A DNA stretch of 60,556 nucleotides from Candidatus Moranbacteria bacterium RIFOXYB1_FULL_43_19 (GTDB taxonomy: Bacteria > Patescibacteriota > Minisyncoccia > Moranbacterales > UBA11712). Location: NCBI GenBank assembly GCA_001784875.1, contig MFSH01000006.1, positions 1 to 60,556 on the forward strand, given 5' to 3'. Each line of letters starts with the position of its first letter. The stretch's first letter is position 1. The translations under genes were made by a program, and so were the position numbers. The notes under the pieces were generated by a model. That model was not told the DNA's origin. It made no database searches and saw only the letters and a program-made list of their open reading frames with translations. This document shows, one piece after another, positions 18,955 to 57,801 of the stretch.

Positions 18955-19037
18955 TTTTCACTACAATTAGTTGTAGTATGCAATTTCAAAAATTTATTCC
19001 AATTAACATTCACTACGATATATCGTGGTGAGAAAAA

Positions 19038-20720: not shown

Positions 20721-20771
20721 CTTGTCGGCAATATTTTTTGTTATTAATCGGCCGTAGCGAGGTTCGACCTC
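20679..20771. mobile_element. 93-bp element with perfect 16-bp inverted termini overlapping the end of the ligase gene
   Basis: GAGGTCGAACCTCGCT (20679-94) and AGCGAGGTTCGACCTC (20756-71). Confidence 0.8.
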
Positions 20772-34342: not shown

Positions 34343-34407
34343 TTGAAGGTTCGACATTGAGGAATTTTCCGACGAATAGTCGGAAAAGGGAAAGGTCGAA
34401 CCTTGAA
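34343..34407. repeat. Nested palindromic element upstream of the nuclease gene
   Basis: TTGAAGGTTCGACATT vs AAGGTCGAACCTTGAA (14/16 inverted), flanking TTTTCCGAC-GAATA-GTCGGAAAA. Confidence 0.75.
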
Positions 34408-35740: not shown

Positions 35741-35761
35741 ATTAGGAAAAATGTATAGACT

Positions 35762-35784
35762 TTCCTAAAGTCGAACTTTAGGAA
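35762..35784. repeat. Perfect palindrome at the MTase-rhuM junction
   Basis: TTCCTAAAGT-CGA-ACTTTAGGAA; same GT-CGA-AC core as the 20679 and 34392 repeats. Confidence 0.75.
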
Positions 35785-35795
35785 TAAGATAACTT

Positions 35796-45101: not shown

Positions 45102-45647
45102 TTAGCGCAAAGAAAATGACTCCAGAACGTAATAAACTCTTTTTCCTTTCTCGAATTTGCTTTCAAAAAGCTCAATCGAAGAAACAGGCGCAGAAAATTC
45201 AAAGTTTTTTTCAATTTTCAGAGGAGGAGAAATTATTTTCCATTCTTTTTTTTGAATTCTTCCGAGCGTTATATGCGGCCTGAAGTCCTTTTTCTCTCTC
45301 GTGAAAAAACCCAGCGCCTTGTCTAATTGATATTTGAATTCTGAAAGCTCTTTGTTCTTTTCCCCTCTTATCCAGATCATTTTTTTTGCTTTGCTGTTTG
45401 GCCCCAGCTCCGCTCCCAAAAATTTGAGATCAAATGATTGGAAATTTTGGGCTAAGGCTTCAATTGAATGGCAAATGTCCAAAACATTTTCGTCCAGAAT
45501 ATAGCCTAAAAAATTCAATGTTATATGAAAATTTTCCTTCCGCACCCATTTTACGGGCAAATTCCTGTACTCTTTTTCGACAAATCGAAACAGGCGCTTT
45601 TTGATATCTTCCGGCAAGCTTATGGCCACAAATAAGCGCTTTTGCAT
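45102..45647 (-). CDS. thpR: RNA 2',3'-cyclic phosphodiesterase (2H family)
   Basis: RLFVAI; two HxT motifs (FHITLNFLG, PHITLGR); LFES. Confidence 0.93.
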   Translation of the reverse strand: MQKRLFVAISLPEDIKKRLFRFVEKEYRNLPVKWVRKENFHITLNFLGYILDENVLDICHSIEALAQNFQSFDLKFLGAELGPNSKAKKMIWIRGEKNKELSEFKYQLDKALGFFTREKKDFRPHITLGRIQKKEWKIISPPLKIEKNFEFSAPVSSIELFESKFEKGKRVYYVLESFSLR

Positions 45648-45754
45648 CCCGGTAGTAGTCCGCCCCCAAATTATTTGGCGGGAAAAATAATTAGCCGAAA
45701 AAACTGAAACTTAGCCCGAAAAATGACCTGATTTTTTGGCGGATCACTACCGGG
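45648..45754. mobile_element. 107-bp MITE-like element inserted at the thpR start codon
   Basis: Termini CCCGGTAGTAGTCCGCC / GGCGGATCACTACCGGG (15/17), flanked on both sides by CAT (minus-strand ATG). Confidence 0.8.
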
Positions 45755-45763
45755 CATGAGTAA

Positions 45764-45792
45764 ATTATAGCATTTTTTCAATTATATTTCAA
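45764..45792 (-). promoter_or_regulatory. Sigma70 promoter upstream of thpR
   Basis: Minus strand TTGAAA-17 nt-TATAAT with extended TG; predicted start about 45757. Confidence 0.7.
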
Positions 45793-45803
45793 CCCAAAAA
45801 AGC

Positions 45804-48110
45804 CTATTGATCTATGCTCAGCTGGTAGACCACAATCGTATCCGATTTTTTGTCGGAACGGATTTCTGTTCCATCCGCCGCAAAAACACCAAAGGTAATG
45901 TCATTTTCTCCCGGCTGGATATCGCTTAGGTCCACTGAAATCGCCTGCTTTTGATTGATACTGGTGATATATTTGTTATAAACTTCGTTTCCGTTGAGAA
46001 ACACTTTTGCTCTGAGAGGTTTTGCCACTTTCAAATTGAAATTCATCTCGCCGCTTTGCACAGCGCCGGTCATATTCACCAGCTTCACTCCCGCCCCATT
46101 TTCGGCCCAGCGATGAAGGCCATTTTTCGACTTGCTTTTTCCGACCCAGTGATTGTTTGAATAGTCCATCGCCAGAAACATATGATTGGGCTTTTCTCCG
46201 ACATCAATCTTGCAGGCATAAAGATACTCATCCTGATATTCATCCGCGCATTTTATCACATTCTGGACATATGCTTGAGCTGAATAAAACATATTCAAAT
46301 CGCCCTTGGCCGGATTGCCTTTGAGCCCCTCTTTGTCCAATATTATATAGCGAATATTGTAATAATTCAGTATTTCACTTGAAATGTCATAATATGAATC
46401 TTTCATCATGTCCCGGTCATTGCCGTTGCTCCCGCCCGGCAAATCATAAAGAATTGTTCGAATGATCGGAGTTCCCCGCTGGAAAGTATAGTGATCGTCA
46501 ATCACCCGGGCAAAGTCATATCCGTTGACGGTGTTTTTGCGATGAATGCTTTTCCAGACCAAATCGCGCGATGCAAAGTCGTAATCCGTGCTTCCAGGAA
46601 CTTCAAGGACGCTGTAGTTTTCTTTGTCCTGCCCAAGCTTTTCATAAAAAGAAGAATGCAGCAGTAAGTTTGTTTTGATCGGAACAGCAAGATACTCAAT
46701 GACAATTATTATGGAAATTGCAAAAAATATAATCTTCTGCCCGAGATTGTTCCCGAATAAATAGGCTAACTCTTTTTCCTCTTTGTTTTCATTCAGAACT
46801 TCTTCTTTTATTTTTTCGCTTTTATTTCTTTTTTTTGATATCAAGTACGCAGCTCCCCACGCCGCCAGGACAGAAAATGCCAGCATCGAATACACGAAAA
46901 GCCGCCCGACAGTGCGGATATTATTGAAAAACGGAAGGTAGTTGTAGGTCAAAAGATACGGCATCTTGACCGGCGGCTCGATTTGTCCCTTGAAGTGAAG
47001 ATACGGCCCGAGAGACAAAACATAGAAGCCGAGGGCAACTGCCAGCCAAAACCACTTTTTTGAAATTCGATCCTTGAAAAATGCGAAGATGGATAGCGCC
47101 AGCACCAGAAAACCGACGTAGACAGAAAAAGAGCTTTCAATTTTTCGCTCAAATGTGCCGCGCAGCTTGGCAAAGGCATCCGGCCAAAATGCGTGAAAGC
47201 TCGGCGGGATAAAAACGCTCAAGGTGTCATTTGAGTACTTCACGGCCGCTTTGAATCCCGGATTGAGATAATTATTTTCCGAGGAAGCAATCTTGAAAAG
47301 CGAGCGGAACATAAAAAAGAAAACCAGGGAAAGAACCAGAGCGCCAACAACAGCGTAAATCCAGAATTTTTTCCGCAGAAACACCTTTGGCTGGGTAAAA
47401 ATCTTATATACAAGAAAAAACAAGACAAAAATAAGAGAAAAAGCCAAAAGCTGGTGCTCCGTAAAGGCAATGATGGCCAGAAAAAGTCCGGCAAGAAAAA
47501 AGTATTTTACCTTGAGATTGCCTGCCCCGTTAGAAATTTCCGATGGTCCAGAGATTCGACCATTCGAAATATTTGCGTCTATATTTTTTGAACTGTTATC
47601 ATAATTTCTAACGGGGTCGAAAAATTTGAAAAGATACAGCGCGAAAAAAGGCAGCCACTCTTGATGCATTGTTCCCACGTTCGTGCTCAAAGAATTGTGA
47701 ACGTGGAACGGAGAAAAAGCAAAGATTATTCCGGCGATAAGAGAAGCCGGCTTGCTTCGGGTGAAATAAAAGGCCAAAAGATACATCCCAAAACCGGAAA
47801 GCACAAAAGACAAGAAAAAGAGAAGGTTATAGCCGGCTACGCGCCCGAAAATGATTTCAAAATAGGCATAGATCGTGACTATGTTGAATTCAGAACGCTT
47901 GGCAAGCTCAAGTGTTCCGCCAAAAAAACCATTGTCTTTGAGAACATTGACCCGTTCCCCCGCAACGCCGATAACCTGCATGGTGTCCGAGCCGAGACTT
48001 GGAACCGACGAGAAAAAATGCCAAGCAACCGGCCAAGTGAGGATGACCGTCAGCACTGCATAGAAAAGAATAACTCTAACTTTTTCGTTTTTAAAAATTT
48101 CTGTCTTCAT
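45804..48110 (-). CDS. Large multi-pass membrane protein, GT-C / YfhO-like
   Basis: LGSD, GRVAGYNLL, FAFSPFH, LSLGP, IRTVGR, C-terminal extracellular domain; 768 aa. Confidence 0.75.
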   Translation of the reverse strand: MKTEIFKNEKVRVILFYAVLTVILTWPVAWHFFSSVPSLGSDTMQVIGVAGERVNVLKDNGFFGGTLELAKRSEFNIVTIYAYFEIIFGRVAGYNLLFFLSFVLSGFGMYLLAFYFTRSKPASLIAGIIFAFSPFHVHNSLSTNVGTMHQEWLPFFALYLFKFFDPVRNYDNSSKNIDANISNGRISGPSEISNGAGNLKVKYFFLAGLFLAIIAFTEHQLLAFSLIFVLFFLVYKIFTQPKVFLRKKFWIYAVVGALVLSLVFFFMFRSLFKIASSENNYLNPGFKAAVKYSNDTLSVFIPPSFHAFWPDAFAKLRGTFERKIESSFSVYVGFLVLALSIFAFFKDRISKKWFWLAVALGFYVLSLGPYLHFKGQIEPPVKMPYLLTYNYLPFFNNIRTVGRLFVYSMLAFSVLAAWGAAYLISKKRNKSEKIKEEVLNENKEEKELAYLFGNNLGQKIIFFAISIIIVIEYLAVPIKTNLLLHSSFYEKLGQDKENYSVLEVPGSTDYDFASRDLVWKSIHRKNTVNGYDFARVIDDHYTFQRGTPIIRTILYDLPGGSNGNDRDMMKDSYYDISSEILNYYNIRYIILDKEGLKGNPAKGDLNMFYSAQAYVQNVIKCADEYQDEYLYACKIDVGEKPNHMFLAMDYSNNHWVGKSKSKNGLHRWAENGAGVKLVNMTGAVQSGEMNFNLKVAKPLRAKVFLNGNEVYNKYITSINQKQAISVDLSDIQPGENDITFGVFAADGTEIRSDKKSDTIVVYQLSIDQ
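47525..47616. mobile_element. 92-bp inverted-repeat element inserted in frame
   Basis: CCCCGTTAGAAATT / AATTTCTAACGGGG, perfect 14-bp termini; encodes PVRNYDNSS...SEISNG between TM segments. Confidence 0.85.
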
Positions 48111-48111
48111 G

Positions 48112-48173
48112 TTCTAATTTCTAATAAAATGACCAATATCTAATGCCGAAAAATTAGTAATTGGAAATTGGAA
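48112..48173. repeat. Head-to-head heptamer arrays
   Basis: TTCTAAT x2, GACCAAT, ATCTAAT ... ATTAGTA ATTGGAA ATTGGAA. Confidence 0.7.
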
Positions 48174-48176
48174 ATT

Positions 48177-48905
48177 TTATTTATATTTACCCTTCCAATA
48201 ATTCACCCTGATTTTCACAAGATCAAGGATCATATTAATCGGATCGCGAACCAGCCTTACGTGACTCTCGGGAGGATTTTGGAGCGATATTGGGAGTTCC
48301 CTGATTTTGTATTTCAATTTATTGGCAATGAATATGACTTCTGCGTCAAAAGCAAACCTCTCCACCGTCACTCGGGAGAAAATATCCATAGCTGCTTTTC
48401 TTCGGAATACTTTGAAGCCGCATTGAGTGTCCCTCACGTTCCAGTCATTGATTATAGTCATACGAAGAATTTGGAAAACCTTTTCCATAATCCGCCGATA
48501 CCAAACAACCGGCCGCACTATGCGAAGCCCTGGCACAAATCTCGAGGCGATAACAATATCGTACCCATTATCAAACTCAAGAACAAATTTTGGCAGTTCC
48601 TCAATCGGGATGCCAAGATCCGCGTCCAAAAACATCACCAGTTCGCAGGAGCTTTCTAAAATTCCCTGCTTCACAACCTTGCCTTTTCCCTGATTTGTTT
48701 TGTTGTCAATGATGCGAAGATGCAGATTCTCTTGAATTTTTTTCAGTTCTTTTGACGTTCCGTCAAAACTTCCGTCGTTCACGACAATTATTTCAAAAAC
48801 TCCAAACCGGTCTTTGAGAAAATTGTGTATCTTTGTTAGGTTTCTTTGGATAGTCTGCTCTTCGTTATACGCAGGAATAATGACTGATATTGCCTTGTTT
48901 TTCAT
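48177..48905 (-). CDS. GT2 polyprenyl-phosphate glycosyltransferase (Dol-P-Glc synthase-like)
   Basis: SVIIPAYNEE, VNDGS.D, NQGKG, FLDAD, DTQCGFK, RFAFDAE; start at MKNK (48905). Confidence 0.9.
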   Translation of the reverse strand: MKNKAISVIIPAYNEEQTIQRNLTKIHNFLKDRFGVFEIIVVNDGSFDGTSKELKKIQENLHLRIIDNKTNQGKGKVVKQGILESSCELVMFLDADLGIPIEELPKFVLEFDNGYDIVIASRFVPGLRIVRPVVWYRRIMEKVFQILRMTIINDWNVRDTQCGFKVFRRKAAMDIFSRVTVERFAFDAEVIFIANKLKYKIRELPISLQNPPESHVRLVRDPINMILDLVKIRVNYWKGKYK

Positions 48906-48966
48906 AAAAAAATAAGCCCGCAGTCTTTTCAAAACCATTATGCTATATTTTACAACAAATGGGCAT

Positions 48967-50709
48967 TTATTTCCACAAATCTTTCCAAAATATACGGTTT
49001 GATTTCTCGTTTTCCTCTCCTGCGCTTTTATAGGTCGGCAAGAGCTGGCCGGCAAAATTTTCTTTCAGAGCCAATTTGTATACTCCTACAGCGCCGATTT
49101 TGTTTTGCTCGCCAGCCTCAAATTCCGCCTGTATTTTTTTATCAATCGGCAATTTTTTCGTCCGTGTCAGCCCCATTGCGAAAACGCATTTTTCCTCGTC
49201 TCCTGTTTTCAGGCTGCTTATGGAAATAGCTTTTATTCCTTTTTGCTCCAACAAATATTTCACGGGCCTTTTATACTCGGCAGGCGCATTGTAATACACT
49301 TCCTTTTCTGAACAGTTTTTCTCCATATATTCTGTGGCTTTTTCAAGGTGCCAAAGAACAATTCCGTCTTTAGCTTTGAGAATTATTGTCCGCCGGGGAT
49401 AAGTCCCTTTTTTCTGGGCTGCTTCGATTTCCTTAAACCAGGCAAATGTCCCAACCAAGTTTCCGAAGAATATGACCAGAAGGACAGCCGCGACACAAAC
49501 CTTCCAAAATGCGTGCCTCTTTCGCCAGAATAATGTCGCGATATACCCTGCAAATATGAACGGCAGCCCTAAAAGAGGAAGAAAAAATCTCGGCCGGATC
49601 TGATAGGCCACAGGAATATACGTGAGAAAATAAACCAAAAACCAGAGGAGCGAAACCAGGATAAAGTTTTTTTTCACCAAGTTTTTTTCCTGACGGAAAG
49701 ATCGAAGACCGACGTAAAGCGCCGGTAAAATTGCGCCCAACCAGGCTAGAGCCGCGCTGCTTATCCCGCTTTTACGGCTTATCCAACTGGTCAGAATAAG
49801 CAACCAATTCTGCCCCCAATACCGCACATCCCGATTCACATTTTTCCAAAAACTGTGCGCTGATGGCTTTTCTTTGAGCGCCAGCATGAATTGACGGGTA
49901 TTTTCTCCTTTGGAGGCAATTTCATTCAAAATCACCGGGATATACACCAAAAGGACAATCGCCAAAAACAAAAGGATATATTTCCAGTTGAGCGCTTTTC
50001 TTGCATATTTCCAGTTGAAAATAATGAATAATACTGTAATCACAGGCAGCGTAAGAAAAGAAAGAAAATGAAGCTGGGTCGAAACGGCGAAAGAAAATCC
50101 GGCCAGAACCACCCAGCGAAGCCGGTATTTTATTCCCTCGCCCCGCACTGTTTTCCCTTTTTCAACAGGGTGCGGTATTTCTTTGTCCTGCTTATTTTTT
50201 GCTAAAGAAGTGGCGCAGGGTAAATCGAATACATTGAGAAGCGAAAAGAAAAAAAGAAGATTGAAGAAGACGAGACCGTTTGGATTCCAGGCAAAGCGGG
50301 AATATTGGACTCCCAAAAAGCAAACGGCGTAGAGGCTCGCCAGGATCATCGACCAGTCACGCGAAAAGTATTTCTTGGAAAACACATAGAAAAGCGGGAT
50401 GGACAGAATTCCGAACAGAAGATCCGGAAATGCCAGGACCGCCGGATGGGCGCTTTGAAAAAGAACGGCCGCAGCATATTGGAAATAGTAGAAGGCCGGC
50501 CCAAGATTGAGATCTGTTCCGCCAGCTTTTGGTCCAAGGAGCGGCAGCCAGCCGGGGCCCAGTTCAAGGGCTTGCCGAATGGTAGATGCGTCCCGCGCCT
50601 GGTCCATCTTGAAAAAAAGCCAATCGGAAAAATTTGATACGCGAAGAAAAACCGCGAGGGCAATAATGGCAAAAAATAAGATTATTTTCCAGTTTGGTTT
50701 GGATTTCAT
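48967..50709 (-). CDS. GT39/ArnT/PMT-like membrane glycosyltransferase
   Basis: LRVSNF...KMDQARD, LLGPKAG...LGPAFYYF, YSRFAWNPN, QLHF, PRFF. Confidence 0.8.
   Translation of the reverse strand: MKSKPNWKIILFFAIIALAVFLRVSNFSDWLFFKMDQARDASTIRQALELGPGWLPLLGPKAGGTDLNLGPAFYYFQYAAAVLFQSAHPAVLAFPDLLFGILSIPLFYVFSKKYFSRDWSMILASLYAVCFLGVQYSRFAWNPNGLVFFNLLFFFSLLNVFDLPCATSLAKNKQDKEIPHPVEKGKTVRGEGIKYRLRWVVLAGFSFAVSTQLHFLSFLTLPVITVLFIIFNWKYARKALNWKYILLFLAIVLLVYIPVILNEIASKGENTRQFMLALKEKPSAHSFWKNVNRDVRYWGQNWLLILTSWISRKSGISSAALAWLGAILPALYVGLRSFRQEKNLVKKNFILVSLLWFLVYFLTYIPVAYQIRPRFFLPLLGLPFIFAGYIATLFWRKRHAFWKVCVAAVLLVIFFGNLVGTFAWFKEIEAAQKKGTYPRRTIILKAKDGIVLWHLEKATEYMEKNCSEKEVYYNAPAEYKRPVKYLLEQKGIKAISISSLKTGDEEKCVFAMGLTRTKKLPIDKKIQAEFEAGEQNKIGAVGVYKLALKENFAGQLLPTYKSAGEENEKSNRIFWKDLWK
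50141..50221. repeat. Degenerate inverted-repeat element in frame in the GT39 gene
   Basis: CCCCGCAC...TGGCGCAGGGT with an internal CCGCAC-TGTT / AACA-GG-GTGCGG hairpin; hydrophilic insert of about 27 aa. Confidence 0.45.
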
Positions 50710-50779
50710 GAAACCATTCTTTGAATTAAAAAGTTTTTATGAAAGGGGAAGCTTGCTATGGCCTCCCCCTCCAGACTGT

Positions 50780-50980
50780 CTAGAGATTGTCAAATATTCT
50801 TGATTTGAACCACTCCGGGTCGGGGTTTGGAGGACCGGCGAGTGGATTGGCGTAATAGAATCCATCTCGATGATTCATACGATCGAATCTTTTCCGGAAT
50901 TCCCTTTTTTCTCTCCGCAGGCGCTTAATCATTTTTCTCATGCGCCAAAAAAGCAAGAAACGACTTCTCCAGTTCCGCAT
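50780..50980 (-). CDS. Small, very basic hypothetical protein (66 aa)
   Basis: SD GAGGAGG 5 nt before ATG; Arg/Lys-rich N-terminal half, Pro-rich C-terminal half. Confidence 0.7.
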   Translation of the reverse strand: MRNWRSRFLLFWRMRKMIKRLRREKREFRKRFDRMNHRDGFYYANPLAGPPNPDPEWFKSRIFDNL

Positions 50981-50991
50981 ATGTCCCTCCT

Positions 50992-51984
50992 CTATTTGCC
51001 ACGTTTGGCAATTTTAAAAATAAAAATTCTTTTTTTTATTAATCCAAATAAATTCCAAATAACGCTCCCCCATGCTTTGAGAATCACAAGCGCTACTTTG
51101 CCCTTGCTGTATCCTTTTACAAATTCAGTTTCCCGCTTCTTGTTTTTGAATATGTTCAAGACTAACTGCAGATAGCTCAAAAATCGCCAAAAAAATGCTT
51201 CTATCATTTCTCCGAAGGAGAAATTCTTGATAACCATGAAAAAATAATTCCGATGCAGATAATAGGCTTTCAAAAGCGATGCCTTTCCCGCCGTTCCGCT
51301 ATGGACATGGTATGCCAACGCTTGCGGACAAAAATAGGATTTGAATCCGGCTTTTTTCATCCGCCAGGCCAAATCCACGTCCTCATAAAAAGCAAAATGG
51401 TCTTCGTCAAAATAATTATTCCCGGGAAAAGCCGTCTTTTCCAGCGCTTGCCGGGTAAACAGCGAAGCTGTCCCGTTTGCGCCAAAAATTTCTTTTTCGT
51501 CGCTGTATTTTTTTTCATCTTTTCCGTATCCCCTGTTGTGCGCCGTCCCGTCACGTGAAATATATATTCCCGCGCAGTCGATTTTATTTTTTTCAAAAAA
51601 ATTCAGAACCTTCGGCTGGATCGATCCGGCCTCGGGACGATTTTCGGCGCAACTCTGCAACTCCTTGACGTATTTTTCATCCAGCTTCGTGTCGTTGTTG
51701 AGAACAATGACATAATTGATATTTTTGTCTTCGAGAGCTTTTTTTATTCCTGTGTTGTATCCAAAGCAAAAGCCAGTATTCGCTCTCAACTGAACAATCT
51801 CCAAACTTGGAAGTTCGGCTTCCAAGTAGTTAGCTTTTATAAAATCAACCGAATCGTCTTCCGAACCATTGTCCACAAAAATCACTTTGAAATTTTTTTC
51901 TGTCTGCGCTTCGAGCGAATCAAAACAATCTTTGAGATACTTTTTTCCGTTCCAGTTGACAATGATAACTGCAATTTTATACAT
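50992..51984 (-). CDS. Glycosyltransferase family 2
   Basis: IIVNWNG, VDNGSED, NTGFCFGYN, LNNDT, GANGTASL, FAFYEDVDLAWR. Confidence 0.92.
   Translation of the reverse strand: MYKIAVIIVNWNGKKYLKDCFDSLEAQTEKNFKVIFVDNGSEDDSVDFIKANYLEAELPSLEIVQLRANTGFCFGYNTGIKKALEDKNINYVIVLNNDTKLDEKYVKELQSCAENRPEAGSIQPKVLNFFEKNKIDCAGIYISRDGTAHNRGYGKDEKKYSDEKEIFGANGTASLFTRQALEKTAFPGNNYFDEDHFAFYEDVDLAWRMKKAGFKSYFCPQALAYHVHSGTAGKASLLKAYYLHRNYFFMVIKNFSFGEMIEAFFWRFLSYLQLVLNIFKNKKRETEFVKGYSKGKVALVILKAWGSVIWNLFGLIKKRIFIFKIAKRGK
51805..51827. repeat. Palindromic element inside the GT2 CDS
   Basis: ACTTGGAAG-TTCGG-CTTCCAAGT, identical to 10875-10897; both encode LEAELPS. Confidence 0.85.
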
Positions 51985-52022
51985 AATGCATTTCGAAAAA
52001 CTAAAATAGCAGCTTGTGTCAG

Positions 52023-52062
52023 CCTGCCTGCCCGACTCGCTTTGCGATTCGAAGCGGGAGGG
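52023..52062. repeat. Intergenic GC-rich palindromic element
   Basis: CCTG-CCTGCCCG ... TCGC-TTT-GCGA ... CGGGAGG. Confidence 0.5.
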
Positions 52063-52094
52063 TTTAAAAAATTCTATTTTTCGCTTTTCTTTTT

Positions 52095-53270
52095 TTACAG
52101 TTTCGACCGCAAATAATCATAATACTCTTTACCGTGGCTGTTTTTTGTGGTATATTCCCGCATTGACTTCTCCCGCGCTTCTTTCCCCATATTCCGCCGA
52201 AGCTCCTCGTTGTTTATCAATTTTTCAATTTTTTCAAACCACTCATCTTCGCTTCCCGCCAAAAATCCGTCCGCTCCGTCGTCAATTGCTTCGCGATAGG
52301 TCCCATTATCAACCGCCACCGAAGGCACACTTAAAATCCCCGCCTCAAAAAATTTGAGTTCCGATTTCCCTTCACGGAATGGATCTCCTTTCAAAAGCGG
52401 AATGATATTGATGTCTACGTTTGAAATATTTCTGAAGTGCTCTTCTCTTGGGGAAAAGGGCAGTTTTTCCACTTGATTTGAAAAATTATTGAATCTATTG
52501 CTTATATTCAGCGGTCCGGCGAGAACCAGGCTTACTTTCGGATATTTTCCAAGAATCCGGACGAGCGCGGTTTCAATTGATGCAAAATCTTCATCATGTC
52601 CCTTTGTCCCGGAAAAATAACCGATCTTTAGGCCTATAGTGTTTGACGAAGGTTCAACTTTCGTCAAAATATTTTCAACGATTTCGAGATCTTTGAGGGA
52701 TAATTTGTTTTTCGATATAAAAACTTTTTTTTCATATTTTTCCAATATTTTCCCAATATAAGTCGTTGAAGTTATACAAGTTTTCACATAAGGGTCTTTC
52801 AACATCTCTTCCCCCACTCCCTTTTCATATTGCTTGCGTTCGAAAGAGTTCATTTTTTTGAAATGCTCCGTCTCCTGGATATATTTTGGGTCAAAAACAA
52901 GATCGTCCGTTTCAAAAATTATCTCTTTTCCCATCTTTTTCGCGTTTTCTACAAGTTTTGCGATTTTTGAAGTAAAAAGCGTCCGATGAAAAATAAATAT
53001 CTTGAATTTTTCCGCATATTTCGGAAGAAACGGATTATCCTGGATAGTCACCGAACACTTGAAGCCATGGAGACGCAGCTCTTCGGCCTGATTATGGGTG
53101 CGAAACATCGCGCTGTCACCGACTCCCGTTGTCACAAACAAAATGTCCCCCGGCCGCACCCGTCCAAACTGCGCCACAAAAGATTTCGCCACTCTTTTTC
53201 CGCCTCGAACCAATCCCTCCTGCTTGAGGGCATTCCACGCTTTTCCGGTTTTTATAAGGATTGTTTTCAT
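52095..53270 (-). CDS. Glycosyltransferase (GT4-like)
   Basis: IFETDDL, IGYFSGT, GKSELKFFEAG, DGADGFLA. Confidence 0.85.
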   Translation of the reverse strand: MKTILIKTGKAWNALKQEGLVRGGKRVAKSFVAQFGRVRPGDILFVTTGVGDSAMFRTHNQAEELRLHGFKCSVTIQDNPFLPKYAEKFKIFIFHRTLFTSKIAKLVENAKKMGKEIIFETDDLVFDPKYIQETEHFKKMNSFERKQYEKGVGEEMLKDPYVKTCITSTTYIGKILEKYEKKVFISKNKLSLKDLEIVENILTKVEPSSNTIGLKIGYFSGTKGHDEDFASIETALVRILGKYPKVSLVLAGPLNISNRFNNFSNQVEKLPFSPREEHFRNISNVDINIIPLLKGDPFREGKSELKFFEAGILSVPSVAVDNGTYREAIDDGADGFLAGSEDEWFEKIEKLINNEELRRNMGKEAREKSMREYTTKNSHGKEYYDYLRSKL

Positions 53271-53272
53271 TG

Positions 53273-54421
53273 TTATTTTGTGAGCAGGCGGAAAATGGCC
53301 ATCAGTTTTTGGACTTCTTTTTTGGGGCTCACATTTTGCAAATTGTATTCAATCTTTTCCCGTCCGTTGATTTTTTTCAAGATTCCTTCGAGATTGGAAA
53401 ATGTCTTCATGAAATATCCTTTTTCTTCAAGGCGCGACCGGTTGAAATCATTGTCAAAACAGATTATCGGCAGTTTGGTCGCCATCAGATTGACCAGTTT
53501 GCCGCTTGATTCAGAGCTTGATCTCTTTGGATCAATGGCCGCGTCCCCGAGAGCCATGAAAGCCGGCAAAGAGAAATAAGCCACTTTCCCGGCAAAATGG
53601 ACGAAATTTTCAAAATTATTTTCCTTGGCATACCTCTTATATTTTTCTTCGTCGCTTCCGAATCCGCCAACCAACAGTTTCCACTCGCCATCCGGCGCCG
53701 CGAAATTGCCAAATGCTTCCAAGAGATCGCCTACTCCTTTATTGTCGCTCAAGCCGCCGATATAGACCAGCAGTTTCTTTTCTCCTTTCCATTCTTTTAT
53801 TTCTTCAATTTTTTTCTGCTCCTTCCCGGCGAGCTTCGGCGCCTCGCCGAACAGCTCTGTGTCAACGCCGTCCTTTATCACAAAAATCCTGTCTTTGTAA
53901 GGAAATATTTTTTCTATTTTCGGCAGCATATTCTCGCTGCTGAGAACCAGCCAATCGCACCGCCCGATGAATTTTTTTGAAAGCCAGACAAAAAAATGGC
54001 GGGCTGCATAATTTTTCCTGTTGTAGCTTTTGAATTCTTCTTCGAGGTCCCCCTGCAAGTCAAAAACAATGGGTACGCTGCTCCCGGCGAGAATTTTCGC
54101 AATGTAGCCAACGCCCAGCCCTTCATAAAGATGGGCATGGATAATGTCCGGTTCAAAAGTTTTTATTTGCCTTCGGCACAGGAAAATCAGCTTCAAATCC
54201 AACCAAAATTTTCCCCAAGAAAATCCCGGGGCCGTTCTTTTGTACCACTTTACTTCTTTTATTCTCTCAACATCGAGGCCGCCAATATCTTTTCCGTAGT
54301 GGTAAGCGCAGATTTTCACAACAGAGCCAAATCTTTGCAAAAACTTCGCTTCATTGTATATCCTCATGTGGCAGCCGCGATCGGAAAAAAAAGGAGTAGC
54401 CGTAATAGTCAATATTTTCAT
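53273..54421 (-). CDS. Glycosyltransferase family 4
   Basis: TPFFSDRGCHMRI, IHAHLYEG, YIGGL...KGV, ESSGKLVNLMA. Confidence 0.88.
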   Translation of the reverse strand: MKILTITATPFFSDRGCHMRIYNEAKFLQRFGSVVKICAYHYGKDIGGLDVERIKEVKWYKRTAPGFSWGKFWLDLKLIFLCRRQIKTFEPDIIHAHLYEGLGVGYIAKILAGSSVPIVFDLQGDLEEEFKSYNRKNYAARHFFVWLSKKFIGRCDWLVLSSENMLPKIEKIFPYKDRIFVIKDGVDTELFGEAPKLAGKEQKKIEEIKEWKGEKKLLVYIGGLSDNKGVGDLLEAFGNFAAPDGEWKLLVGGFGSDEEKYKRYAKENNFENFVHFAGKVAYFSLPAFMALGDAAIDPKRSSSESSGKLVNLMATKLPIICFDNDFNRSRLEEKGYFMKTFSNLEGILKKINGREKIEYNLQNVSPKKEVQKLMAIFRLLTK

Positions 54422-54467
54422 AGCTTTTGGCGCTTTTCAAGAATGGCAAAAGAAAAAATATCCCGGT

Positions 54468-55283
54468 TTATTCTCCCCTGATCCTGTCGTTGCTCTCAAG
54501 AACCGCTTTCACAAATTTTGGATCATATCCCGCTTTTTCACTGGCTTTGGCGATGGCATTCACGTCTTTTGGAAGGCATTTTCCCTCAAAACCGCGTTTG
54601 TCTGGAAAAACAGCCGTAAACATTCTTCCTACCCGCTCATCGAGAAGCCAAAGCTCGCGAAGTTCCTTGTACTCAATTCCCATCGTCTCGGCAATGTTAT
54701 AAAATTCATTGCAAAAAGTCACTTTCGTGGCGATGAAAGCATTTTCCATGTATTTCACCAGCTCGGCCGTTTTTGAACTGGTGAGATGGAATCTGGCTTC
54801 CGGCCCCATCACCCGCACAAAAAAATCCATTATTTTGGAAGCCGTCTCCCTGTCACCGCCTATTATTTGAAAACTGTGCTTTTTCATGTCCTTTGGATCG
54901 GGATATTTCCAGTAAGGAACGAAATAGCCCCCTTCTCCCATATACTCGGGAGAAAAGCATATTTTCTTGCCGGTCTCCTTTTCCAGGCTCTCTGTCGTCC
55001 CGGGCGGAATAGTGCTTTTGATGAGAATCAGAGGGGTATCCAGCCAACCCAGGGTTTCTCTTATGATTGCTAGGTCGCATGACCCGTCGTCGCCCATCGG
55101 GGTCGGAACCGAGACCACGGCAAAATCACACTTATTCACTTCTTCCTTGCTGGCTGATCCTTCCACGTTCGGATCGAAATAAATGGTTTCGAATTTGCCT
55201 TCGAAGAAGTTATACACTCCTTTTCCTACATAGCCATAGCCAACTATGGCAATTTTTTTGGGGGTCTTCTTTGCTTCTGTCAT
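54468..55283 (-). CDS. Short UDP-glucose/GDP-mannose dehydrogenase family protein
   Basis: GYGYVG, VPTP, KSTIPPGTT, SPEY, AELVKYMENAFIATKV, GFEGKCLPKD; 271 aa, C-terminal domain absent. Confidence 0.88.
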   Translation of the reverse strand: MTEAKKTPKKIAIVGYGYVGKGVYNFFEGKFETIYFDPNVEGSASKEEVNKCDFAVVSVPTPMGDDGSCDLAIIRETLGWLDTPLILIKSTIPPGTTESLEKETGKKICFSPEYMGEGGYFVPYWKYPDPKDMKKHSFQIIGGDRETASKIMDFFVRVMGPEARFHLTSSKTAELVKYMENAFIATKVTFCNEFYNIAETMGIEYKELRELWLLDERVGRMFTAVFPDKRGFEGKCLPKDVNAIAKASEKAGYDPKFVKAVLESNDRIRGE

Positions 55284-55351
55284 AAGATAAGTTTAAATAA
55301 TAATTACGCTGATTAAGGCATTTTACATAATGCCATGGGACAAAAATATTT

Positions 55352-55819
55352 TCAATTCTTATGGATAATCGTTTCGTCCTCCAAAATCGGCTCTTTGGCA
55401 AAAACAAATTTTTTTCTCATGAAAAAATTCCATTGGAGAACTAGCACGATTGATACCATTTTGGCAAACATTATATAAATATTGAGCTTATCCACTAAAA
55501 TCCAAAGGATGATTTCCGTCCAAATGAGCCCTCCGATGCCGATAATCGCAAAAATAGGAAATTCTTTTTTTACTTCACCGCTGCTTTTGAAAACAAGGAT
55601 CGTATTGAGAGAATAATTGACAATTATGCCAGTCAAAAACGCGCCAGCGGCAGCAACAAGATAATTGATGTGGAAAATGTGCGTCAAAAAAAACAAAATG
55701 CTGATATCCGTCACCGTCGCCACCCCACCGCACATAAGGTAGCGAAAATATTGCAAAAGCCCTTTGTTCACTTTCCGGCCCAGCACTTTTTCAACAAATT
55801 TATCTATTTTTTGTTTCAT
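55352..55819 (-). CDS. GtrA family flippase-like protein
   Basis: FRYLMCGGVAT..D, VNYSLN..LVF, AKMVSI...WNFFMRKKFVF. Confidence 0.9.
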   Translation of the reverse strand: MKQKIDKFVEKVLGRKVNKGLLQYFRYLMCGGVATVTDISILFFLTHIFHINYLVAAAGAFLTGIIVNYSLNTILVFKSSGEVKKEFPIFAIIGIGGLIWTEIILWILVDKLNIYIMFAKMVSIVLVLQWNFFMRKKFVFAKEPILEDETIIHKN

Positions 55820-55831
55820 TGGATAGCTTTC

Positions 55832-57667
55832 TTATTGGCCCAAATCCTGGGGCGGATTGATAATTTTCACGAAATCGTTGGGATTATGATTGATCAAAAC
55901 TTCGTATACAAAATCTTTGCTCGCATAAAGTTTTTCAAAATTGATTTCTTTTTTCATATGCTTTGTTCTTTTCAGGCTGCGGGATTTCCGGTCAGTAGAC
56001 AAAACAAAAAAATCAAATTTGTCTTCTTTGAATTTTTCCCTTTTGAAATCAGTGGCGCACTTGCCCACGAAGGCTTCGCATACTGCGCCTTTGTCCGACC
56101 AGATGACCAGTTCTCTGGCATTGGGCAAATTATTCAAATAACTCGCGGCTTCGTAGCTCCCTTCTCCCATGCCTTTGAGATTGACGATGAAATTTTTAGG
56201 AAGAATCTCCGAAGCATAGGCTAAAAAATGGGGCTTTACGATAAACAGGCTGGCCAACAGAACCATCGCTGAAGCGACATAAACCGTGAGAAGAGGCACA
56301 TTCTTTTTGACTTTTTTGATTTCCAGAAATTGGGACGCGCCAATAGCCGCCACGACAAAAATCAGGGGATAAACCATTATCTGGTATCTGACGGTGGTGA
56401 TGACCTTGTTCACGGCCGCCCCGAGATAAAAAATGAAAATAAACAGAATTATATAAACGGCGATAATCGAATCCCGCTTCAACTCTTTTTTTCGGAAAAA
56501 ATTTGCCGCGGCGAACAACAAAAAAACGAGAACGAGCGGCGAAATGCTGAACATAAGGCTGTAGACGTCGGCTGACAAAGCACCCGTATATTTCTGAATC
56601 ACGTTCCCCTCTCCGATTCCCTTCGGCGAAGCAATAATCTTTTGGAGGTCAAAAAAAGAAAGCTGCGCGTATACCTGCAAAAAAACAAACGCGGCCAGAA
56701 GCAAAAAAAATCCCGCCGCAGCTTTGGCAATAACGATTTTATGTTTTGCCAAAAAACTGAAGACTACATTCGAAAACCTGGCCTCGAAAACCAGGATGTC
56801 GACAGCCAAGAGGCCAATGACGCCGGCAAAAAGAGGCCAGGTGGATGAGAAAACCTTGTTTCCGACTGTCGCTCCGATAAGAAGAGAAAGATTCACCCAT
56901 GTCGCCGGAAAAAAGACAAAAGCCGTCGCCATTGCGGTCAAAAAAAGAATGGCATAGTCCCGAAGAGCCTGTTTCATATATTTTGCGATAGGAACACGCT
57001 CGTGCGCGTAAAATATATATTCCAGGAGATATATCAGGAAGAAATAAACAAAGAGAATATTGGCGACATATTTGGTGATCACGGACAGCCCGAGCAAAAA
57101 CCCCGAGAGAAGAAGAAATTTTCTCTCTCCCGCCTTGAGATACGCAAAAAGGCTAAGAGTGGACAGTCCTCCCAAAATCCAAAGCATCGCGTCCGAATTG
57201 ATAATCAGGGAGATGCCCAAAAGCACCGGCGACAGGCCGATGAATAAAAGGGAAAATCTGGCGGTATTTTTCCCCAGCAGTTTTTTGATGAGAAAATAAA
57301 AAACGGGAAGAATCGCCAAAGTGAACAGAAAAACCGGCAGGCGCAAGAAAAAATAAACATCTTGAATCTTCTGGAGCTCTTCGGCTGTTTTCGGCTCAAA
57401 GCGCAGATATTTGTAGTTTTTCGGATGCTCCCCGATGAAGGGCAAGCCGATCCCGGAAACAATCGCCAGCGGTATGCCCGGCTTGTCGCTTATGTTGGTC
57501 GCTCCCCAGTCCTTTTCTTTCACGTTTTTCCAGAGTTTGGGCACCCTTCCATACGCCCAGAGCGGCTCATCCACACCGGAAAAATTTTCGAGGCGCGAAA
57601 ACCCGAAAAAAAAACTTGAAGAAACAACAACAAAAAAAATCAAAATTGTGATTATTCTTTCTCTCAT
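55832..57667 (-). CDS. GT39/ArnT-like membrane glycosyltransferase
   Basis: GVDEPLW, SDKPG, RLPV, INSDA, LSVITKY, RYQI; more than 11 TM. Confidence 0.8.
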   Translation of the reverse strand: MRERIITILIFFVVVSSSFFFGFSRLENFSGVDEPLWAYGRVPKLWKNVKEKDWGATNISDKPGIPLAIVSGIGLPFIGEHPKNYKYLRFEPKTAEELQKIQDVYFFLRLPVFLFTLAILPVFYFLIKKLLGKNTARFSLLFIGLSPVLLGISLIINSDAMLWILGGLSTLSLFAYLKAGERKFLLLSGFLLGLSVITKYVANILFVYFFLIYLLEYIFYAHERVPIAKYMKQALRDYAILFLTAMATAFVFFPATWVNLSLLIGATVGNKVFSSTWPLFAGVIGLLAVDILVFEARFSNVVFSFLAKHKIVIAKAAAGFFLLLAAFVFLQVYAQLSFFDLQKIIASPKGIGEGNVIQKYTGALSADVYSLMFSISPLVLVFLLFAAANFFRKKELKRDSIIAVYIILFIFIFYLGAAVNKVITTVRYQIMVYPLIFVVAAIGASQFLEIKKVKKNVPLLTVYVASAMVLLASLFIVKPHFLAYASEILPKNFIVNLKGMGEGSYEAASYLNNLPNARELVIWSDKGAVCEAFVGKCATDFKREKFKEDKFDFFVLSTDRKSRSLKRTKHMKKEINFEKLYASKDFVYEVLINHNPNDFVKIINPPQDLGQ

Positions 57668-57795
57668 CCCGGTAGTAGAATTTCGGCATTTATACCTAAA
57701 TGTCGCAAAATTTTATCAGTTTTAAGACTAAAAATATCACTTATAGACCCCGGCAGTTTTTTCCGCGCAAACTCATCCGAAATTTTACTACCGGG
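57668..57795. mobile_element. 128-bp MITE-like element inserted at a start codon
   Basis: Termini CCCGGTAGTAGAATTTCGG / CCGAAATTTTACTACCGGG (18/19); 4-bp direct repeat TCAT (minus-strand ATGA) on both sides. Confidence 0.85.
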
Positions 57796-57801
57796 TCATG
57801 T

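Follow-up and report, generated by a model that had tools for sequence, protein, structure and literature searches.

Elements inserted on start codons in a Moranbacteria contig are probable MITEs of a Patescibacteria family encoding a GIY-YIG nuclease

Two short inverted-repeat elements, E1 and E2, are real mobile-DNA insertions that lie exactly on gene start codons in a contig of Candidatus Moranbacteria bacterium RIFOXYB1_FULL_43_19 (the window, by which we mean the whole stretch of DNA analyzed, comprises 60,556 nucleotides). They are probably internally deleted, non-autonomous MITEs of a Patescibacteria element family whose full-length members encode a GIY-YIG nuclease.

Results

The features of the two loci are as follows.

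45648-45754, no strand: E1, a non-autonomous element (MITE) of 107 bp with termini CCCGGTAGT...ACTACCGGG
45645-45647, minus strand: the ATG copy next to the gene, now serving as the thpR start codon (a single ATG in relatives)
45755-45757, minus strand: promoter-proximal copy of the duplicated ATG, which opens a 28-codon uORF
45764-45792, minus strand: thpR promoter, with -35 TTGAAA at 45787-45792 and -10 TATAAT at 45764-45769
45102-45647, minus strand: thpR (2'-5' RNA ligase / LigT_PEase family), coding sequence intact despite E1
57668-57795, no strand: E2, a non-autonomous element of 128 bp with termini common to E1
57664-57667, minus strand: gene-proximal ATGA copy, which includes the start codon of the PMT_2 gene
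57796-57799, minus strand: distal ATGA copy, which follows the stop codon (TGA, 57802-57804) of the GT2 gene upstream after a gap of 2 nt
55832-57667, minus strand: PMT_2 (GT39-type) membrane glycosyltransferase, coding sequence intact
57802-58821, minus strand: Glycos_transf_2 gene upstream, with a stop codon formerly coupled to the ancestral ATG

A sequence-only reading of this DNA had described E1 with these termini and with arms matching at 15 of 17 positions, and we found both exactly as described; a repeat search extends the arms to 24 nt, matching at 79%. E1 is flanked on the plus strand by CAT on either side, corresponding to ATG...ATG on the coding (minus) strand, a 3-bp target duplication compared with a family norm of 4 bp. 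The uORF that starts at 45755-45757 enters E1 and stops 26 nt ahead of the thpR ATG. The TTGAAA-17-TG-TATAAT promoter that had been proposed in front of this gene can be read directly from the sequence. Its 17-nt spacer ends in the letters TGC, and 6 nt separate the -10 box from the ATG at 45755-45757, which is a leaderless arrangement. The inner inverted repeat AGTCCGCC/GATCCGCC defines the subfamily of E1, whose similar members are L027, L051, L073, L083, and L111.

E2 likewise occupies the position, with E1-type termini, that the same reading had given it. Its arms comprise 19 nt at 95% (repeat search), and its inner repeat, AGAATTTCGG/AAAATTTCGG, places it in the main subfamily. The flanks are TCAT on both sides, or ATGA...ATGA on the coding strand, and the coupled junction with the upstream gene reads TGA-ac-ATGA[E2]ATGA, as had been inferred. 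The distal ATGA opens a uORF of three codons (ATG ACC CGG TAG).

The interiors of E1 and E2 are unrelated, confirming the earlier description. The exact terminal 9-mer occurs four times in the window, only as the inverted pairs of the two elements, compared with ~0.5 exact matches expected by chance from the window length. Folding either strand of E1 or E2 gives a long hairpin (-35 to -44 kcal/mol, z = -4.2 to -4.9). A search of the whole window against Rfam 15 at the gathering threshold gave no match, and no GIY-YIG gene lies within the window. Because the spacing between E1 and E2 is identical in every contig with the identical proteins, both may be old and immobile.

Single-ATG empty alleles had been predicted at both loci. 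At thpR, the predicted empty site is present in three relatives, in which the ortholog of the upstream gene is 69-73% identical; a single ATG lies 6-7 nt behind a conserved -10 box and is followed by CAAAAGCGC... The -10 box is conserved in these relatives (L261-L264), the -35 TTGAAA in L261 and L263/L264, and in two of the three relatives TTGAAA precedes the -10 box at 17 nt. At the PMT_2 locus, however, no empty allele was found for E2. Another family copy, L133, can be compared with an empty site in L148, where the start of CysRS shows a single CATA. Evidence for mobility also comes from copies that are 81-92% identical within unrelated flanks and from tandem arrays, which have the duplicated target in common; one of them (L126) shows re-use of the regenerated TATG.

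We scanned for the termini while ignoring the flanks, using one genome per species. The scans accepted only termini that were exact over 10 nt and that fell within one of two length windows (up to 330 bp), and gene starts were assigned by ORF heuristics. The resulting counts are lower bounds, and since the set of copies listed is also incomplete, they are samples and not a census. At least 116 loci were recovered, nearly all from Patescibacteria and mostly with ATG-type duplications at ORF starts, so the expectation that other copies with these termini exist was fulfilled. The scan also caught genuine GC-rich GTAG palindromes in Stenotrophomonas (L050, L071). Of the 216 non-redundant copies listed, 138 have a 4-bp duplication, 25 one of 3 bp, and 13 one of 5 bp. 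An ATG lies inside the flanking repeat in 116 of these 216, and the commonest repeat overall is TATG. Several single genomes carry at least three to five copies each.

The MITE copies listed are 103-141 bp long and contain no ORF. Inverted-repeat arms of ~20 bp are found in ~200 copies listed, and the terminal-inverted-repeat criterion for a MITE is met by these as well as by E1 and E2. The remaining criteria are also met: the target duplication is verified at empty sites; the elements are small, non-coding, and multi-copy; and a coding parent has the same termini. The inner segments of the two arms covary, indicating that the stem is kept. The interiors, by comparison, are unconstrained; the elements are inserted in both orientations; and no strand bias of -10 or Shine-Dalgarno motifs was detected inside the MITEs. 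The frames of the uORFs that start at the upstream ATG are distributed 25:24:24, that is, randomly, and nearly all of them stop within the element; only one of 73 is open throughout and would give a fusion.

Approximately 75-85% of the copies listed adjoin an ATG that opens a long ORF, and a start codon opening at least 60 codons adjoins 62 of 81 strictly filtered copies (~77%). A thymine occupies position -1 at 86% of the ATG sites versus 37% of background starts. All 10 host ORFs tested (CysRS, RuvA, class II aaRS, SecA, LeuRS, SMC, PNPase, DnaG, TypA-like GTPase, and TyrRS) match housekeeping Pfam families from profile position 1-4. As a chance control, gene starts account for 6-9% of TATG sites overall and for 33-44% of those outside genes, whereas 81-86% of the insertions outside called genes are at starts (p ~1e-9 versus non-genic TATG). 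Relative to non-genic TATG this excess is no more than 2- to 2.5-fold, and selection after insertion could account for part of it.

These data support the proposal that start codons are targeted, in that they are the main target, but not an exclusive one. Hexamers at -35 constitute ~10% of the sites, with a -10 box at 16-18 bp in 13 of 20, and the last codons at the 3' end of rny another ~5%. The rny site is TA(C/T)G, is filled in at least 12 divergent lineages, and leaves the protein preserved. At start codons that carry insertions, a -10 box 4-9 nt upstream is enriched (28% versus 12%). Even when the duplication is displaced by a base or two (ATGA, ATG, or TGAA following an A), it overlaps the ATG, and a T at -1 is missing from some of the ATG-overlapping duplications.

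The same termini also enclose elements of 300-320 bp with a single gene, an ORF of 90-100 amino acids of the GIY-YIG type, which is conserved in at least 65 non-redundant elements. Their terminal inverted repeats are ~20 bp long, with a conserved outer CCC(G/C)GTAGT. The ORF matches Pfam PF01541 (GIY-YIG) with E values of 1e-14 to 1e-16. Sequence matches in the PDB are 1zg2, 1ywl, and SLX1 (7wme), and the top Foldseek matches are 1zg2 (UPF0213 BH0048) and Slx1, with I-TevI well below. Invariant or near-invariant residues comprise Y12/Y14, Y25-G27, R35, E59, and R69-E71. The protein consists of the GIY-YIG core alone, and a DNA-binding domain is absent. By sequence and fold it qualifies as an Slx1/UPF0213-like stand-alone GIY-YIG nuclease; that it has structure-specific nuclease activity is inferred. 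It had been suggested that a transposase or RAYT gene would be flanked by these termini. An enzyme gene is indeed present, but its product is the GIY-YIG nuclease, not a RAYT or a transposase of any known class.

The nuclease ORF has the same orientation as the duplicated ATG in 32 elements and the opposite one in 1, and it is in frame with that ATG in 18 of the 32, often being fused to it through the terminal repeat as MPGSE... Of three homologs retrieved by protein similarity alone, every one was bounded by the repeats and by a (T)ATG duplication that lay at the start of a host gene; the host ORFs of two of these were tested (RuvA and class II aaRS). Repeats and nuclease co-occur across proteins that are 38-99% identical and across several repeat subfamilies. 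Two MITEs, L052 and L110, keep the C-terminal 28 codons of the nuclease gene, linking the short and full forms. Such a remnant is found in only 2 of 125 MITEs, the interiors being otherwise unrelated. Free-standing GIY-YIG homologs without repeats also exist (L097, L060). In 2.08 Mb of mostly Patescibacteria sequence, we found no other gene between matching termini, and no matching termini 335-6000 bp apart enclosed anything.

Discussion

The best explanation of these results, which we regard as likely, is that E1 and E2 are MITEs of a family of 300-320 bp GIY-YIG elements that insert at start codons. Insertion generates a staggered target duplication of 3-5 bp, mostly 4 bp, with a strong preference for T-ATG. 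The sites are overwhelmingly true host start codons, many of them leaderless; -35 hexamers (at their TTG) and the final codons of rny are hit less frequently. The duplication leaves the host signal at each end of the element, so that the host coding sequence is undamaged. In a full-length element, the nuclease ORF runs in the direction of the ATG and is driven by one of the two copies of the signal.

How insertion proceeds can only be inferred. The nuclease itself may mobilize the full elements and, in trans, the MITEs; there is no biochemical or genetic evidence that it cuts either the ends or the targets. It would probably recognize the base of the hairpin or cruciform formed by the repeats together with the conserved terminal 9-11 bp. 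The enzyme might then make a 4-nt staggered cut in the target, with host repair or ligation completing the insertion. A host gene behind a MITE would be transcribed from its old promoter and could be translated downstream of the short uORF or once the hairpin has undergone RNase III-type processing. More tentatively, and with a serious but not a prevailing case, the 300-bp element could be the smallest autonomous DNA transposon and its ~90-amino acid nuclease a mechanistically new class of prokaryotic transposase. Such an element would be recognized through the base of the hairpin or cruciform at its ends, integrate at melted or signal-bearing promoter DNA (leaderless +1 ATG, -35 TTG), and borrow the duplicated signal while leaving the host gene intact. 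A full-text literature search retrieved no published description of such an element.

The elements might instead merely prefer TATG (or WTG) without any recognition of initiation regions, the start-codon pattern being a survivor effect in genomes that are ~90% coding. We consider this unlikely, although it deserves weight. T-A-T-G is strongly preferred as such, a third or more of non-genic TATG sites (33-44%) are already gene starts, tandem arrays such as L126 re-use the regenerated TATG, and the rny site is a TA(C/T)G at which the protein is preserved. On the other hand, the observed 81-86% at starts exceeds that expectation (p ~1e-9), shifted duplications still overlap the ATG, in some cases without a T at -1, real -35 hexamers with properly spaced -10 boxes (13 of 20 at 16-18 bp) form a second target class, and upstream -10 boxes are enriched (28% versus 12%). 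A host-beneficial role for the hairpins as regulatory RNA or DNA (5'-UTR riboregulators, RNase III sites, or terminators) under selection, rather than as selfish DNA, is highly improbable. It would account for the stable folds on both strands (z ~ -4 to -5), the covarying arms that keep the stem, and the location in the 5' UTR of many essential genes, but orthologs in relatives lack the element at an otherwise conserved promoter-ATG junction. Furthermore, both orientations and unconstrained interiors occur, no Rfam match was found, the uORF frames are random (25:24:24), and the target duplications, the tandem arrays, and the presence of near-identical copies in unrelated genes point to mobile DNA.

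The identity of the mobilizing enzyme leaves room for further alternatives. The elements could be ordinary MITEs moved by an unseen conventional (e.g. DDE) transposase, with the GIY-YIG gene as cargo or a homing-type hitchhiker. A duplication of 3-5 bp with terminal inverted repeats is the classical DDE signature, and to our knowledge GIY-YIG enzymes act by hydrolysis, with none known to be a transposase or to catalyze transposition. In addition, repeat-free homologs exist (L097, L060), and our length windows (up to 330 bp) would directly miss a parent of 1-2 kb. Nevertheless, we judge this explanation distinctly unlikely: nothing is enclosed by termini 335-6000 bp apart in the 2.08 Mb of mostly Patescibacteria sequence, repeats and nuclease stay together across 38-99% identity and several repeat subfamilies, the repeats were found with all three protein-retrieved homologs, and the orientation and frame of the gene are tied to the element ends and the duplicated ATG. 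If the protein were a homing endonuclease, the element would spread only by double-strand-break repair into allelic sites, without transposition. The fold is the classical one for such enzymes, and the rny 3' end, filled in at least 12 divergent lineages, resembles a homing site, yet there is little to recommend this idea. Dozens of unrelated sites carry short duplications, whereas homing leaves none and needs flank homology, and the protein has no DNA-binding domain beyond its ~90-amino acid core and is closest to Slx1/UPF0213, not I-TevI. Mobilization as REP/REPIN-type elements by a RAYT (HUH Y1) transposase is barely credible. The terminal motif contains GTAG, the hairpin unit is ~100 bp, and the scan did catch the Stenotrophomonas palindromes (L050, L071); however, the target duplications are real and verified by empty sites, the arms are not themselves palindromic REPs, the enclosed gene is GIY-YIG and not HUH, and the elements occupy 5' ends and start codons, not 3' intergenic regions.

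The proposed GIY-YIG family can be compared with several known systems. As a rule, the parents of bacterial MITEs are IS elements that encode DDE transposases. An insertion sequence with a DDE, DEDD, HUH, Ser, or Tyr transposase was rejected here, as the sole ORF is PF01541 and the 2.08 Mb of sequence contain no longer element with matching termini. Correia elements (CREE) of Neisseria are similar in size (~100-150 bp), terminal inverted repeats, short fixed duplication, and high copy number, and they also form long hairpins co-transcribed with neighboring genes, which are reportedly processed by RNase III. They duplicate TA, however, and have no established parent, whereas the present family duplicates T-ATG or TTG(A), at start codons and -35 boxes, and has a parent encoding only GIY-YIG. 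REP/REPIN-RAYT systems share the short hairpin repeats, the conserved GTAG-containing end, and the small enzyme gene flanked by repeats. REPINs differ in lacking a target duplication, in residing mostly at gene 3' ends, and in using an HUH enzyme, and membership is ruled out by the target duplications, found here at 5' ends, and by GIY-YIG as the flanked gene. IS200/IS605 elements, the smallest autonomous insertion sequences known (~0.6-0.7 kb), are comparably minimalist, with end hairpins thought to be important over long protein-bound repeats and a target specificity on the tetranucleotide scale. They use an HUH Y1 enzyme and have neither a duplication nor terminal inverted repeats, whereas the present element, about half their size, has both. 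Rickettsia palindromic elements (RPE), also small palindromes from a lineage with reduced genomes, likewise spare the genes that they enter but lie in frame inside coding sequences and are translated. Assignment to this type is excluded by the random frames (25:24:24) and the single frame in 73 that is open through the element.

GIY-YIG homing endonucleases (I-TevI, I-BmoI, and phage Seg) have the same catalytic fold and are likewise selfish elements. In contrast to the present nuclease, they possess a long C-terminal DNA-binding domain and one long target, have no inverted repeats or duplication, and spread via recombinational repair; membership is ruled out by the 90-100-amino acid core-only protein and the many unrelated sites with duplications. 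UPF0213 proteins (BH0048, 1zg2; EF2693, 1ywl) and eukaryotic Slx1 belong to the same lineage by sequence and fold; Slx1 itself is a structure-specific nuclease of branched DNA. The stand-alone bacterial Slx1-like group has been described as a minimal GIY-YIG domain without an auxiliary domain, with a predicted role in DNA repair for the prokaryotic homologs and mainly vertical descent inferred for the Slx1 family (PMC1564403). Unlike the family described here, the homologs in that study come with no mention of terminal repeats, target duplications, or multi-site insertion.

The element family is widespread in ultra-small groundwater bacteria and, among the matches listed, almost confined to Patescibacteria. 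If our interpretation is correct, a cut-and-paste-like bacterial element would be driven by a nuclease fold that is otherwise familiar from DNA repair, homing endonucleases, and Penelope retroelements. The few enzyme classes that serve as prokaryotic transposases would gain a further one, and the minimum size of an autonomous mobile element would fall to ~300 bp. Thousands of entries named "GIY-YIG nuclease family protein" or "putative endonuclease" would have to be re-read as element-encoded, and many of their annotated N termini (MPGSE...) as translated terminal repeats. With its defined end and target, such a ~90-amino acid nuclease would have further appeal as a tool.

For the host, selfish DNA would survive in reduced, ~90%-coding genomes by way of the start codon, the -35 box, and the stop region. 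Regeneration of the signal on either side lets essential genes (secA, dnaG, smc, and those of several aminoacyl-tRNA synthetases) survive insertion. They are evidently still expressed behind a long hairpin (-40 kcal/mol) and a short uORF, in a manner that is unexplained. Many of the targets look leaderless, and Shine-Dalgarno-like motifs are rare (~10% of starts). The element would thus offer a handle on gene expression in uncultivated Patescibacteria.

Two inverted-repeat elements at gene starts in the window

Sequence and repeat checks located the window's two small terminal-inverted-repeat elements, E1 and E2, exactly where the sequence-only reading had placed them. The elements and the coding sequences behind them are as follows:

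E1, 45648-45754, 107 bp, flanked by a duplicated ATG at the thpR start
E2, 57668-57795, 128 bp, flanked by a duplicated ATGA at the PMT_2 gene start
thpR, 45102-45647, minus strand, coding sequence behind E1
PMT_2/GT39-type gene, 55832-57667, minus strand, coding sequence behind E2

Both elements run from CCCGGTAGT to ACTACCGGG, and the four exact occurrences of this 9-mer in the window are only those of the E1 and E2 ends. As had also been claimed, each element carries its own longer inverted repeat (15/17 in E1, extendable to 24 nt at 79%; 19 nt at 95% in E2), and the two interiors are unrelated. Each folds on either strand as a single long hairpin, with energies of -35 to -44 kcal/mol and z scores from -4.2 to -4.9. 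Because searches of the window returned 0 matches to Rfam families and no tRNA or tmRNA, E1 and E2 correspond to no known RNA. The coding (minus) strand reads ...TATAAT-TTACTC-ATG[E1]ATG-CAAAAG... at thpR and TGA-ac-ATGA[E2]ATGA-GAGAAA... at the PMT_2/GT39-type gene, in agreement with the proposed junctions, and the thpR promoter is as described: a -35 TTGAAA (45787-45792), a 17-nt spacer, a -10 TATAAT (45764-45769), and 6 nt to the ATG.

Proteins identical to those of the window were found in many groundwater metagenome contigs and in GCA_001784775.1, with gene spacing unchanged in all of them; E1 and E2 are therefore fixed in that population and may be old, fixed copies. Named homologs of the 768-aa protein next door belong to Moranbacteria or the Parcubacteria group, and the window is assigned to the Patescibacteria on this basis. 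Two repeat subfamilies coexist in this one genome, E2 representing the main one (AGAAnTTCGA) and E1 a second (AGTCCnnC).

The window also holds a different 93-bp inverted-repeat unit, GAGGTCGAACCTCGC...GCGAGGTTCGACCTC (20679-20771), with a promoter-like TAGATATAAT within it and its end 9 nt ahead of an ATG, and a smaller repeat with a GGTTCGA core (34343-34407); these may constitute a second palindromic element family of the same genome. Adjacent genes at ~35000-37800 (17890-20546 in locus L001) have precomputed Pfam tags GmrSD_N, Virulence_RhuM, and EcoRI_methylase, and this neighborhood may be a small defense or restriction cluster.

Empty sites in relatives

Loci from other genomes or metagenomes are denoted by L and a number, with coordinates local to each locus. 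Relatives in which the upstream gene's ortholog is 69-73% identical have the same gene order and short spacers, and they supplied the empty thpR site that had been predicted, with a single ATG where the window has ATG[E1]ATG.

Empty thpR junctions in relatives
L261: GGGTTGAAAATTGGTTGGTAAAATGCTATAATTTTCTT-ATG-CAAAAGCGC
L263 and L264: ...TTGAAAATTGGGTGAGAAAATGCTATACTTTATTC-ATG-CAAAAGCGC
L262: ...GGTATAATGTGATT-ATG-CAAAAACGC

The leaderless-type promoter is kept at these empty sites. A second filled/empty pair was identified at a CysRS start, where L133 is filled (620-751) and L148 is empty, with a single CATA. An empty allele for E2 was not found in L261-L264, which offer no comparable junction because the PMT_2-GtrA-UDPGDH block after the GT2 gene is wholly absent from them.

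A family of short elements in Patescibacteria

A flank-blind scan for short non-autonomous copies (MITEs) with the pattern CCCGGTAGTR-N(83-113)-YACTACCGGG, using one genome per species, returned at least 116 loci, almost all in Patescibacteria; Moranbacteria, Buchananbacteria, Kaiser-, Jorgensen-, Sung-, and Portnoybacteria, among others, are represented in the listed loci. We set aside a minority in GC-rich genomes that either lacked extended repeats or were Stenotrophomonas GTAG palindromes. The latter (L050 3485-3611, L071 79-193, and L112 6265-6374) are GC-rich perfect palindromes that match the 9-mer by way of a GTAG motif. Their appearance is that of REP/SMAG-type repeats, and they are not related to the Patescibacteria family. 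A scan of viral contigs gave 5 matches, four of which had neither extended repeats nor a duplication and look like chance; the viral-scan locus L024 has 11 nt in common at each end. All copy counts are samples, because the scans demanded exact 10-nt ends in two size windows and did not return every match, and this design is itself in part responsible for the conservation seen across the outer 10 nt.

Direct repeats form the flanks: of 216 non-redundant copies of all sizes, 138 have a 4-bp repeat, 25 a 3-bp one, and 13 a 5-bp one. The repeat contains ATG in 116 of the 216, TATG being by far the most frequent form, followed by ATGA, ATG, and CATG; other repeats contain TTG (22 copies) or are TACG (10 copies). 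T occupies position -1 in 86% of ATG sites. Interiors are unrelated between copies, and the inner arm halves vary by subfamily while remaining complementary within each copy. Near-identical elements (81-92%) occur in unrelated flanks, and tandem arrays share a duplicated target. In two such arrays (L126 7439-7864 and L230 5895-6299), at least three elements lie head to tail, separated solely by the duplicated target (TATG and TGAAG, respectively), and adjacent units of the L126 array are partly identical and partly different.

A GIY-YIG nuclease gene in the full elements

The sequence-only reading had suggested looking for a transposase or RAYT gene flanked by the same termini. No conventional transposase was found in the 2.08 Mb examined, but an enzyme gene does lie between such termini. 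Two units of 317-320 bp with the family termini were present among the genome loci, both with a GIY-YIG ORF, and a metagenome scan for termini 295-325 bp apart yielded at least 120 loci, which reduced to 65 non-redundant elements. Each of the 65 has one GIY-YIG ORF of 89-100 aa, with pairwise identities from 38% to 99% and the conserved motifs Y.Y...Y.G.T..L..R..EHN...STK..PW..IY.E.C...DA.RRE.Y.KT..GRR. A longer parent with a conventional transposase was rejected, as none lies between matching termini 335-6000 bp apart in the 2.08 Mb examined, and no other genes were found between matching termini anywhere in this sequence. The nuclease gene is absent from the window itself; the MITEs at L052 and L110 keep the last 28 codons of such a gene.

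Relative to the ORF, ATG-containing duplications run sense in 32 elements and antisense in a single one. The ORF begins at the duplicated host ATG in 18 of the 32 sense cases and translates through the terminal repeat (MPGSE[T/N]S...); in the other 14 its start lies ~25 nt into the element. The stop codon of the nuclease precedes the host ATG by a median of 20 nt. Copies at TTG-type and rny (RNase Y) sites also point the same way as the host signal. As an orientation marker, the AG/GA mismatch at repeat positions 10-11 was rejected, since in full elements it takes either arrangement with respect to the ORF (35 versus 19); the 35:23 split among MITEs therefore carries little information.

The element protein has more than 2,300 clusters in the protein database, named just "GIY-YIG nuclease family protein" or "putative endonuclease." In each of three homologs picked on protein similarity alone (3/3), the repeats and a (T)ATG duplication are present and the start of a host gene follows. 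One of the three has a variant end, CCCCGTAGT, also seen in L083; the two host ORFs tested encode RuvA (L265) and a class II aaRS (L270). Among solved structures, its nearest sequence relatives are the UPF0213 proteins BH0048 and EF2693, plus SLX1. The AlphaFold model (pLDDT 82.5), in which the repeat-encoded residues 1-6 are disordered, is nearest to BH0048 and the Slx1 nuclease domain, with I-TevI and UvrC well behind. Prokaryotic Slx1-like proteins have been described as a minimal GIY-YIG domain, with descent of the Slx1 family inferred to be mainly vertical and an earlier prediction of a repair role cited; neither repeats nor mobility are mentioned for them there (PMC1564403).

Several other loci carry related genes. 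A more distant homolog (~40% identical) at L106 3340-3740 lacks CCCGGTAGT ends and has on each side a copy of a tRNA gene's 5' portion (GGGCCCGTAGTTCAGCTGGTTAGAATGCCTGC); it may be a tRNA-targeting relative. Free-standing homologs without recognizable terminal repeats occur at L097 (2845-3093 and 3123-3245) and L060 (1822-2061). The gene at L097, with a TTGACG...TATAAT promoter of its own, lies 30 bp from an E1-type MITE, and a trans-acting or domesticated copy is possible. Upstream of one GIY-YIG element (L269 1-2864) is a UvrD-type helicase whose Hint/intein-splicing Pfam tags mark it as intein-containing.

Start codons as the main target

Insertion at start codons, proposed from the two cases in the window, extends to 62 of 81 copies in a strictly filtered set, where the junction start codon opens at least 60 codons away from the element. 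Gene starts were taken from ORF heuristics with Pfam backing for 10 cases only; all ten host ORFs tested (CysRS, RuvA, class II aaRS, SecA, LeuRS, SMC, PNPase, DnaG, TypA-like GTPase, and TyrRS) match from profile positions 1-4, and therefore the junction ATG is the true N terminus of an essential gene.

A preference for TATG combined with loss of intragenic insertions could by itself concentrate copies at starts. As a control, elements were deleted in silico, ORFs were called, and every TATG in 842 kb of Patescibacteria loci was classified. Only 6-9% of all TATG sites, and 33-44% of those outside genes, lie at gene starts, whereas 81-86% of the TATG-duplication insertions outside called genes do (p ~1e-9). 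The pattern is therefore far above chance, with a ~2- to 2.5-fold excess of starts over the prediction from TATG preference plus intragenic loss.

A -10-like box lies 4-9 nt upstream of 28% of insertion-site starts versus 12% of background T-ATG starts (p = 2e-4). On this sequence evidence many targets look leaderless, which is merely suggestive because background start calls are noisy. In the same 842 kb, Shine-Dalgarno-like motifs are rare throughout (~9-14% of candidate starts). T is the most frequent base at -1 (37%), and a -10 box precedes a considerable fraction of the starts by 4-9 nt. This suggests that leaderless or SD-independent initiation is widespread in these Patescibacteria genomes.

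Other target sites

Start codons are not the only target, and the original proposal held for the main one, ATG, but did not cover the -35 TTG and the rny stop region. TTG-type duplications correspond to the TTG of -35 hexamers (TTGACA, TTGCTT, and others), and 13 of 20 are followed by a -10 box at 16-18 bp; a reading as TTG start codons was discarded, as long ORFs are lacking. The TACG/TATG class is a single site within the final codons of rny that recurs in at least 12 divergent lineages; there the element end G|CC CGG TAG restores the original Ala-Arg-stop. In these genes (RNase_Y_N+KH+HD), TA(C/T)G within ...E-Y-A-R-stop serves as the target, and the former tail, CGAGATAA, persists behind the element. 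A full GIY-YIG element occupies this site at L074 3517-3833, and further rny-site loci are L151, L186, L156, L159, L167, L170, L171, L220, L235, L252, and L221. The site is either an ancient inherited one or a homing-like hot spot.

Proposed mechanism and novelty

The repeat-bounded unit inserts with a staggered duplication of ~4 bp, preferentially at T-ATG start codons (many of them behind a -10 box), the -35 TTG, and the rny stop region. The host signal is regenerated at every insertion, and full copies place their sole gene directly behind it in the sense direction. We infer, without transcript, protein, or activity data, that the GIY-YIG nuclease is the mobilizing enzyme. Given its small size (~90 residues) and Slx1-type fold, the enzyme probably recognizes a structure, the base of the repeat stem including the conserved CCCGG/CCGGG end, and not a sequence of 20 bp. 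Such recognition would also account for the presence in one genome of both the E1 and E2 subfamilies, whose inner repeats differ. The final step of the reaction would fall to host ligation or repair.

A host gene behind a MITE would presumably still be transcribed from its old promoter, and a short uORF starts at the upstream ATG (28 codons long in E1; ATG-ACC-CGG-TAG in E2). An in-frame translated insertion like the Rickettsia RPEs was excluded, as MITE uORF frames are random and almost all end inside the element. Restoration of host expression by an outward promoter or Shine-Dalgarno sequence in the MITEs gained no support, the motifs showing no strand bias (TATAAT, 9 versus 13; 5/6 matches, 65 versus 69; SD-like, 8 versus 8). 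The downstream ATG might instead be used through reinitiation, or through RNase III-type cleavage of the ~20-bp stem, which would re-create a near-leaderless 5' end.

The full-text literature searched, which excluded subscription-only papers, described neither repeat-bounded GIY-YIG elements nor start-codon-duplicating MITEs in bacteria. As MITEs, E1 and E2 are a familiar kind of object; their parent element and its choice of targets lie outside every transposon class compared.
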